A stretch of DNA of 2,313 nt, taken from assembly GCF_024223415.1 (NCBI RefSeq), contig NZ_CP100508.1. The stretch is one strand, 5' to 3'. The stretch comes from Escherichia coli (GTDB taxonomy: Bacteria; Pseudomonadota; Gammaproteobacteria; Enterobacterales; Enterobacteriaceae). Of the stretch, positions 2,161-2,300 are shown piece by piece. A model generated the notes under the pieces. It searched no databases. It had not been told where the DNA came from and saw nothing but the letters and a program-made list of their open reading frames with translations. Position 1 is the stretch's first letter. Each line of letters opens with the position of its first letter. The position numbers and the translations under genes were made by a program.

Positions 2161-2300
2161 GCGCGTTTCCGGCAAGAACTAACCATGGGGATGGTTTGCG
2201 TGCCAACGAACGCCGGAAACGCGCTTCAAACCTACCGAGTCGCCACGGTTCCGGCAGCGCCTTGAGCGCAACCGGAAACCGTCTGGGGAGAACCCCAGAC
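2161..2300. repeat. GC-rich cluster of three hairpin-forming inverted repeats, function unknown
   Basis: Hairpin 1: perfect 13-bp inverted repeat GCGCGTTTCCGGC (2161-2173) / GCCGGAAACGCGC (2212-2224), with a nested hairpin AACCAT-GGGG-ATGGTT (2181-2196) in the 38-nt spacer. Hairpin 2: imperfect inverted repeat CGGTTCCGGCAGCGC / GCGCAACCGGAAACCG (2246-2281). Hairpin 3: 8-bp stem GTCTGGGG / CCCCAGAC with loop AGAA (2281-2300). The motif TTCCGG/CCGGAA recurs four times. None is followed by a T-tract. Confidence 0.4.

Follow-up and report, generated by a model that had tools for sequence, protein, structure and literature searches.

What is the function of a dense cluster of stem-loops at positions 2161–2300 of a small Escherichia coli plasmid? 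The stretch analyzed here (contig NZ_CP100508.1, referred to as the window) is 2313 bp long and is, over its whole length, a complete circular plasmid of the RepL type. An earlier interpretation made from the letters alone (the sequence-only reading) placed the cluster in a GC-rich 'right flank' and suggested an origin of transfer (oriT) or a single-strand initiation (ssi) signal, with a repetitive extragenic palindromic (REP)-like element or a structured non-coding RNA (ncRNA) as alternatives. We find that the three stem-loops are real and conserved. Their alignments indicate selection for pairing, most probably on the + strand, and we favor the reading that they act as ssi signals for priming of the lagging or complementary strand, to which we assign a probability of roughly 0.45.

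The label 'right flank' does not hold, because positions 2100–2313 continue directly into 1–385 of the circular plasmid. The two GC-rich 'flanks' (58–61% GC, compared with approximately 30% in the genes) therefore form one contiguous non-coding module of approximately 600 bp, which extends from about 2119 to 2313 and, across the circle junction, from 1 to 385. Hairpins 1–3 make up its 5' third.

Structure and conservation of the hairpins

Hairpin 1 (2161–2224, + strand) is built from the arms GCGCGTTTCCGGC (2161–2173) and GCCGGAAACGCGC (2212–2224), which are 13 nucleotides (nt) long, 100% complementary and 38 nt apart. Its loop contains a nested hairpin (2181–2196, + strand), in which AACCAT (2181–2186) and ATGGTT (2191–2196) enclose GGGG. 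In hairpin 2 (2245–2282, + strand), the outer stem pairs ACGGTTCCGG (2245–2254) with CCGGAAACCGT (2272–2282) and leaves one bulged A, followed inward by an internal loop (CA/AA), an inner stem of GCGC (2257–2260) with GCGC (2266–2269) and the loop CTTGA. Hairpin 3 (2281–2300, + strand) has an 8-bp stem, GTCTGGGG (2281–2288) with CCCCAGAC (2293–2300), and the 4-nt loop AGAA. Thus, the perfect 13-bp inverted repeat with its nested hairpin and the two further stem-loops within 140 bp are all present where the sequence-only reading placed them. Hairpins 1 and 2 also share the TTCCGG/CCGGAA motif as it described, with TTCCGG at 2167 and 2249 and CCGGAA at 2213 and 2272; another CCGGAA lies at 356.

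That such structures would hardly arise by chance is borne out by shuffling. The DNA fold of 2150–2313 has an energy of −44.8 kcal/mol and a z-score of −5.82 on the + strand; for the − strand, the values are −46.7 kcal/mol and −5.68. None of 200 shuffles folded as stably, and a single one of 300 dinucleotide shuffles of the window contained a perfect inverted repeat of 13 bp or more (loop of 3–60 nt). The remark that the structures lack T-tracts and are not intrinsic terminators was also right: no T-run follows any stem on either strand, and a terminator scan of 2161–2313 returned no terminator-like sites.

For hairpin 1 we aligned 10 plasmid variants. The 13-bp outer helix is 100% paired in them, compared with 30–45% when the partners are slid against each other. 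Compensatory changes occur at two pairs, from G-C to A-T once and from C-G to T-A in four sequences. Two more pairs have changed on one side, to T·G on the + strand, and the nested helix has G·T at three positions. In total, 12 cells of the alignment are G·U on the + strand, and every one-sided change is a G·T wobble on this strand; the four non-standard cells, typed by eye, are gaps or A·A and not A·C. Inspected likewise by eye, the members of the hairpin-1 family in pPCP1, the colicin K (ColK) plasmid and pFHI_NMBU_10_05 show one + strand wobble each. We notice that this family, with the arms GCGCGTTTC[CT]GG and CC[GA]GAAACGCGC and loops of 38–45 nt, is present in 2–4 copies per plasmid, in one orientation and with differing loops (L005 639–790 and 1035–1100; L003 1672–1745; L231 1080–1150).

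For hairpins 2 and 3, the comparison covers 32 distinct sequences from a metagenome pattern scan and from plasmids, in which the search pattern fixed part of hairpin 2. Here, 89% of the cells are paired, compared with 23–46% when the partners are slid. Pair 42–55 of hairpin 3 is T-A in 29 sequences, C-G in one and G-C in one, and the loop of this hairpin varies freely (AGAA, AGAC, TTCT, GTCT, AGAG, AGTA, CACG) while the stem is retained. The internal loop of hairpin 2 is closed in some variants as T-A plus A-T, or as T·G plus A-T, and in pB379_5 the bulge is missing, resulting in a perfect 10-bp stem. Hairpins 2 and 3 together show five one-sided changes, each of them to G·U on the + strand. 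The covariation score is 0.026 compared with 0.017 in shuffles, a modest difference because variation among these relatives is low.

The conservation continues past hairpin 3. An unstructured block follows it on the + strand (CCCCACCGCTGCA, 2301–2313) and runs on past the circle junction (ACATCGACGGTCTATGACCACCCACCAACCGAG, 1–38). Within this block, G66 C67 T68 G69 of the alignment are invariant in the 32 sequences and include CTG at 2308–2310; the block is retained as CTGTAAC in pSTEC2018_607-f, a plasmid that lacks hairpin 3. Further stems lie downstream on the same strand. The first (39–59) pairs GCCCAT with ATGGGC across a 9-nt loop; in its most frequent variant, GCCTGT/ATGGGC, two pairs are wobbles that hold on the + strand only, and its covariants change T·G to T-A and G·T to G-C. 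A compound hairpin (73–123) combines a weakly supported outer stem, GGCGCG with CGCGCC, and an inner stem, CCCCTA GT TAGGGG (98–111); in 77 sequences, this inner stem is CCCCTG/TAGGGG and contains one G·T of the + strand. The stem at 165–180 (ATGCCC TGAC GGGCAT) lies within a segment of about 134–368 that is common to IncX4 plasmids, and one arm reads GGGTAT there, giving one G·T on the + strand. The hairpin TTGAGC ACGCAC GCTCAA (368–385, + strand) forms the right end of the module.

Counting hairpins 2 and 3 together with five downstream stems, and leaving hairpin 1 aside, we find 30 wobbles valid on the + strand and 13 valid on the − strand, although these counts are not independent of one another. 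Taken together, the alignments argue that the hairpins are under selection for pairing, and the excess of + strand wobbles suggests that the folded strand is most probably the + strand.

Candidate single-strand initiation signals

The proposal of an ssi signal by the sequence-only reading gains from the covariation, from the strand bias and from a relative of a known priming element on the same strand. In ColE1 replicons, ssiA is the PriA-dependent site of primosome assembly on the lagging strand (PMC3167613, PMC5935869). On the strand of the hairpins, the module ends in a homolog of the ColE1/pMB1 ssiA (267–368, + strand). This segment carries GAGGAAGCGGAAGAG, including the AAGCGG motif of the family, and is 75% identical over 103 nt to pPCP1 565–663 and 76% identical over 66 nt to ColE1 1308–1367, in the interval from ori to rop. 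As a member of a known family, the ssiA-like segment is new but ordinary; for the hairpin cluster we found no characterized homolog.

The distribution of the module in pieces points in the same direction, as these pieces adjoin replication genes or origins of unrelated replicons, namely IncX4, a 24-kb plasmid and ColE1-like plasmids. Block A (2119–2231), which contains hairpin 1, shares 74–86% identity with a segment found in small plasmids, ColE1-like and others, among them Yersinia pestis pPCP1 (approximately 420 bp upstream of rop), the colicin K plasmid and plasmids with a 332-aa Rep. The conserved 5' part of this block (CCTCGACA..TCGATACGATAGAACATCAGG, 2119–2160, + strand) shows 78–85% identity to ColE1-like plasmids. 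From hairpins 2 and 3 (block B) onward, positions 2234 to about 381 are 85% identical over 464 bp to the 1.5-kb plasmids of the pKL1 type (pKL1, NC_002145). Block C (about 2301 to 165) is located, without hairpin 3, approximately 400 bp downstream of repA in the 24-kb plasmid, and in IncX4 plasmids, block D (about 134–368) precedes the rep gene by approximately 780 bp. The contexts of the blocks vary: they follow rep in pKL1 and an AT-rich spacer in the window, pSTEC2018_553-i has a 75-nt insert, and IncX4 plasmids have block D alone.

The orientation of the module relative to rep is fixed, which also argues for an ssi role. Its + strand is the rep-sense strand in four Rep lineages that share 19–25% amino-acid identity. 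In three ColE1-like plasmids, the + strand of hairpin 1 runs opposite to rop and is the RNA II-sense strand, that is, the lagging-strand template of unidirectional ColE1 replication. Moreover, the + strand in the window is the nicked and transferred strand of the plasmid's own oriT. By analogy, the order of ssi-like element, iterons and rep resembles that of the pHW126 family (pIGRK, pIGMS31), in which the ssi-like palindrome is dispensable and its loss raises the copy number and causes multimers (PMC6854812; bioRxiv 10.1101/2022.12.05.519187). Compared by layout alone, this family and the single-strand origins of rolling-circle plasmids share with the window a structured element followed by iterons and rep. 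The pHW126 plasmids are likewise small enterobacterial plasmids with a winged-helix Rep, and in both cases the element appears dispensable and orientation-specific. In contrast to our cluster, the pHW126-type element is a single palindrome that resembles the ColE1 ssi.

On this basis we propose a possible course of events, in which the recruited priming proteins, their identity and the direction of the fork are our inferences. Exposure of the + strand would come first, be it as the template of the lagging strand at a fork that travels in the repL direction or as the displaced or transferred strand. SSB would coat this strand, and the GC-rich hairpins would persist as entry sites for host priming, at which PriA-PriB-DnaT may load DnaB-DnaC, followed by DnaG. 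Alternatively, hairpins 2 and 3 may be bound directly by DnaG, with a start at the invariant CTG at 2308–2310. Synthesis of the complementary strand would then begin. The hairpins may cooperate with the ssiA-like primosome assembly site at 267–368.

How does the cluster compare with the priming signals already described? Like ssiA and ssiB of ColE1/pMB1 (the phiX174-type sites, or n'-pas), it is non-coding, hairpin-forming, strand-specific and near a plasmid origin. It shows the stable stem-loops of one strand that mark this family (z −5.8, with covariation and the + strand wobble bias), and hairpin 1 of the ColE1-like plasmids lies on the ssiA strand. On the other hand, the hairpins are 300–450 nt away from the ssiA homolog and occur without it in some plasmids, and a link to PriA is in our case an assumption by analogy. 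The complementary-strand origin of phage G4 and the G sites offer a second comparison, as they also have three stem-loops within approximately 140 nt followed by an unstructured stretch with an invariant CTG, which in G4 is the primer start. The resemblance is one of architecture, and a CTG after a hairpin is weak evidence; it lies 8 nt from the last stem here and 3 nt in G4. Hairpin 1 is missing from the pKL1-like plasmids. The conserved blocks of the G4/St-1/alpha3 complementary-strand origins were not found in the cluster when the G4 origin (3860–4030) was compared, and since significant similarity to G4 is lacking, we do not file the region as a G site. We also notice that CTGCAAAGCC, the G4 primer-start decamer, is present on the − strand at 66–57, where it follows the compound hairpin. 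With E 0.08 and z 1.5, this match does not exceed chance, and the wobbles at this place favor the opposite, + strand.

Several observations weigh against an ssi function. Region 2161–2300 shows no sequence similarity to characterized ssi signals and contains no AAGCGG, and the G4 origin (3860–4030), in its best local alignment with the + strand, scored below the shuffle mean. An ssi of the DnaA-dependent ABC type was rejected, since the DnaA box TTATNCACA is not found within 1 mismatch in 2100–2313 or 1–400. That the + strand is the lagging-strand template is an assumption for this plasmid of the RepL/pKL1 type. The wobble bias of hairpins 2 and 3 alone is modest (approximately 10 versus 4 in a hand count), and template switching can homogenize the arms of inverted repeats, giving the semblance of compensatory change. 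Because of their synteny, the three ColE1-like contexts are not independent and count as approximately one observation. Furthermore, an intact hairpin 1 is missing from pKL1-like plasmids, and the CTG block from one contig; therefore, no single hairpin is indispensable.

In a more specific form, hairpins 1–3 with the CTG block would be an undescribed class of host-priming signal, or else the + strand of the module would be a structured, primer-like RNA; this joint statement we consider rather doubtful. As priming signals, they would be cassettes exchanged among RepL/pKL1-type, ColE1-like, Col(MP18)-type and IncX4 plasmids, setting the start of the lagging or complementary strand. As a primer RNA, the module would provide RepL plasmids with a second priming step, similar to that of ColE1, ahead of ssiA. 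A priming function of the hairpins would account for the completion of the lagging strand in plasmids of 1.5–2.3 kb with a single Rep, and would mean that such signals move as cassettes between unrelated replicons.

Alternative explanations for the cluster

To weigh the proposal of an oriT, we compared the region with the features of I-complex (R64-type, MOBP) transfer origins: the nick consensus ACATCCTG/TCCC, a preceding inverted repeat, repeat A (GGGGTGTCGGGG..CCCTGACC) and an adjoining nikA. None of these elements lies within 2161–2300, whereas all are present at 1619–1705, just upstream of a nikA-like mobA. This segment, the plasmid's oriT (+ strand nicked), contains repeat A (GGGGTGTCGGGGCTTGCCCTGAC), the inverted repeat GAATGTATTCG..CGAATACA and the nick region ACATCCTATCCC. 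In an alignment, it shares three elements with the nikA-upstream region of an IncI-gamma/K1 conjugative plasmid and with pKL1, namely repeat A (GGGGTGTCGGGG..CCCTGAC), the inverted repeat and the nick region (ACACATCCT(G/A)TCCC). The oriT reading of 2161–2300 is therefore unsupported, and the hairpins are ruled out as a nick or recognition core. What survives of this reading is a neighborhood in other plasmids, where the hairpin-1 block abuts an inverted R64-type oriT: in the ColK-type pSTEC17_183-d, in pFHI_NMBU_10_05 and in p2_0.3, the start of block A coincides exactly with the repeat-A end of a complete oriT of this type in inverted orientation. The abutting elements are located at L005 505–600, L231 722–815 and L223 about 170–260 in the ColK-type and Col(MP18)-type plasmids.

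This neighborhood leads to the idea that the hairpin-1 block is an accessory or leftover of an orphan I-complex oriT unit, involved in relaxosome architecture or termination, or without a role here. Besides the three plasmids, the pKL1 module likewise abuts an R64-type oriT, and in the window, about 2100–2124 hold the degenerate remains of such a repeat-A end, likewise from an inverted oriT. We consider the idea improbable, because the strand that tolerates wobbles is the non-transferred strand of the adjacent oriT, and because neither pPCP1 nor the inspected RepL plasmids with hairpin 1 (pSTEC2018_553-i and this window) show a complete inverted oriT beside the block. The window's own, functional-looking oriT is 450 bp away and complete without it, and hairpins 2 and 3 have no such linkage. 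Priming of the complementary strand in conjugation by hairpin 1 is weakened for the same reason, as the favored folding strand beside the oriT is the non-transferred one. The strand of the wobbles bears also on another view, in which the repeats are half-sites for a protein that binds double-stranded DNA, or recombination-prone boundary palindromes that owe their symmetry to template switching and do not act as single strands. Hairpins 1 and 2 and their copies elsewhere indeed share arms (GTTTCCGGC or GGTTCCGGC; CCGGAAAC) around differing loops, the boundaries of the mosaic blocks fall between hairpins, and the related motif CTGAGCGCGTTT adjoins the XerC arm of a cer site. Yet the arms change (CCGG to CTGG, GCGCG to GCGCA) while the pairing is kept, and the one-sided changes of hairpin 1 are wobbles of one strand, which a duplex site would not favor. 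As hairpin 3 has unrelated arms with the same pattern of conservation, and the best match to an XerCD site is 15/22 with no core, this view seems unlikely to us, too.

The wobbles of the + strand would suit an RNA equally well as a DNA. The module may thus be transcribed in the + sense, with the hairpins as structures of a pre-primer in the manner of RNA II, or of a leader or regulatory RNA directed toward the iterons and repL. In ColE1, the structured RNA II has the same sense and lies directly upstream of ssiA, as blocks A–D do here. The 11-mer CGGTTCCTGGC at 78–88 may match the origin region of pMB1. For the structured ncRNA of the sequence-only reading, however, an Rfam scan of the module with E up to 10, including the circle junction, gave no match, and a promoter scan of the window and of pKL1 found no sigma-70-like site within the module or shortly before it. 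Each block has been shuffled on its own, and the upstream contexts differ, with which one long transcript with a defined start is hard to reconcile, and we therefore regard the RNA as a possibility with a small chance. Far less probable, to the point of being nearly negligible, is a REP-like host element, an intrinsic terminator or part of a coding region. In favor of these, a − strand 'rep protein' is annotated by PGAP in a few 1.5-kb plasmids, and pKL1 has a − strand terminator-like site that uses the left arm of hairpin 2. The copy count is opposed to dispersal of the REP type, with 697 of the 701 places in E. coli on plasmids, four chromosomal and a median of 1 per genome; T-tracts are missing; and the reading frame is broken.

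The possibility that the region lies inside a conserved gene was checked separately. The − strand 'rep protein' has no NCBIfam hit. Its frame is not maintained in the window, which differs in its frames from pECAZ155_4, and the homologs are set apart by indels that shift the frame (deletions of 1 nt, a deletion of 8 nt and a poly-C tract of variable length). Where PGAP places a 'rep protein' or hypothetical open reading frame (ORF) over the module in 1.5-kb plasmids (e.g., L227 84–500, − strand), the product is Arg-rich. Being Arg-rich, without a family hit and without a conserved frame, this ORF is probably spurious. As for the terminator-like site, it is found in pKL1 only (L004 626–607, − strand) and consists of the left arm of hairpin 2, an upstream GCCGCC and an A-run; its T-run is missing from the window.

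Two further candidates were rejected. For a cer-type XerCD site, there is no accessory homology to cer, and the sole cer similarity of the region is the short motif GCGCTGAGCGCGTTT; the 15/22 match is the best in the whole plasmid. A single-stranded promoter like Frpo was rejected because the region has no long imperfect stem bearing −35 and −10 boxes. We also notice that CTGAGCGCGTTT recurs in block D (210–222), in hairpin arms and directly beside the XerC arm of a genuine cer site, as in L005, where the motif is located at 1940–1960 and the cer core at 1957–1990.

The plasmid and its relatives

In PLSDB, the window matches 2313-bp records with 99.7% identity over 100% of their length. These are E. 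coli and E. fergusonii plasmids, such as pPK8275-2.3kb, which are typed as Col(MG828) replicons. We suggest that the module probably contains the sequence typed as 'Col(MG828)', because it is the sole DNA common to the differently encoded RepL plasmids that carry this label. At present, the module is unannotated or mis-annotated as 'rep protein', and we found no description of it in the searchable literature. The hairpin sequences do not occur in searchable full texts, and the papers that mention 1.5-kb plasmids of the Col(MG828)/pKL1 type term them cryptic and do not discuss the module.

The module was found in 551 of 5426 complete E. coli genomes, approximately 1 in 10. It is also present in Klebsiella, Shigella and Salmonella, and hairpin 1 in Y. 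pestis pPCP1. A gapped hairpin-1 pattern gave 0 matches in viral contigs, and the 16-mer of the hairpin-1 loop (CCRTGGGGATGGTTTG) gave only chance matches from unrelated phyla in genome contigs. Matches in phage collections are mis-filed small plasmids, or vector sequence that matches the ssiA-like part alone. Several 'Escherichia phage' records of 1.4–1.9 kb (e.g., OX638291.1, OR844749.1) are 85–88% identical to the module and look like mis-filed pKL1-type plasmids.

Downstream of the module lie the presumed origin, three 22-bp iterons (492–557, + strand), and repL (637–1134; Pfam RepL, E 1.9e-4). The nearest DnaA-box-like sequence, GTATCCACA (429–437, − strand), is located in AT-rich DNA that separates the ssiA-like site from the iterons, a position that fits an origin at about 390–600. 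In pKL1, oriV is upstream of rep and outside the module (PMC3832669). Convergent with repL is the nikA-like mobA (1168–1596, − strand; NCBIfam MobA NF041264, 96 bits against a cut-off of 80), and an inverted-repeat scan revealed a palindromic terminator between the two genes. An AT-rich, geneless stretch of approximately 380 bp (1713–2090, 27–32% GC) separates the oriT from the module.

Small plasmids with nikA and an oriT of this kind but without a relaxase are known, and NTP16 is mobilized by R64 (PMC9282650, citing Moran and Hall 2017). Judged from its oriT and mobA, the plasmid studied here is probably mobilizable by IncI/K/B/O helpers. An identical plasmid is typed as non-mobilizable by MOB-suite, despite its complete I-complex oriT. 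The analysis thus corrects the position of the oriT, and with it the possible I-complex helpers, as well as the 'non-mobilizable' typing and the annotation of the spurious ORF. Finally, the 1549-bp plasmid of the pKL1 type (L004) contains two different orphan oriTs and no mob gene, at 1065–1150 and 1258–1320; one is of the R64 type on the + strand, and the other is a ColE1-type bom in the opposite orientation.

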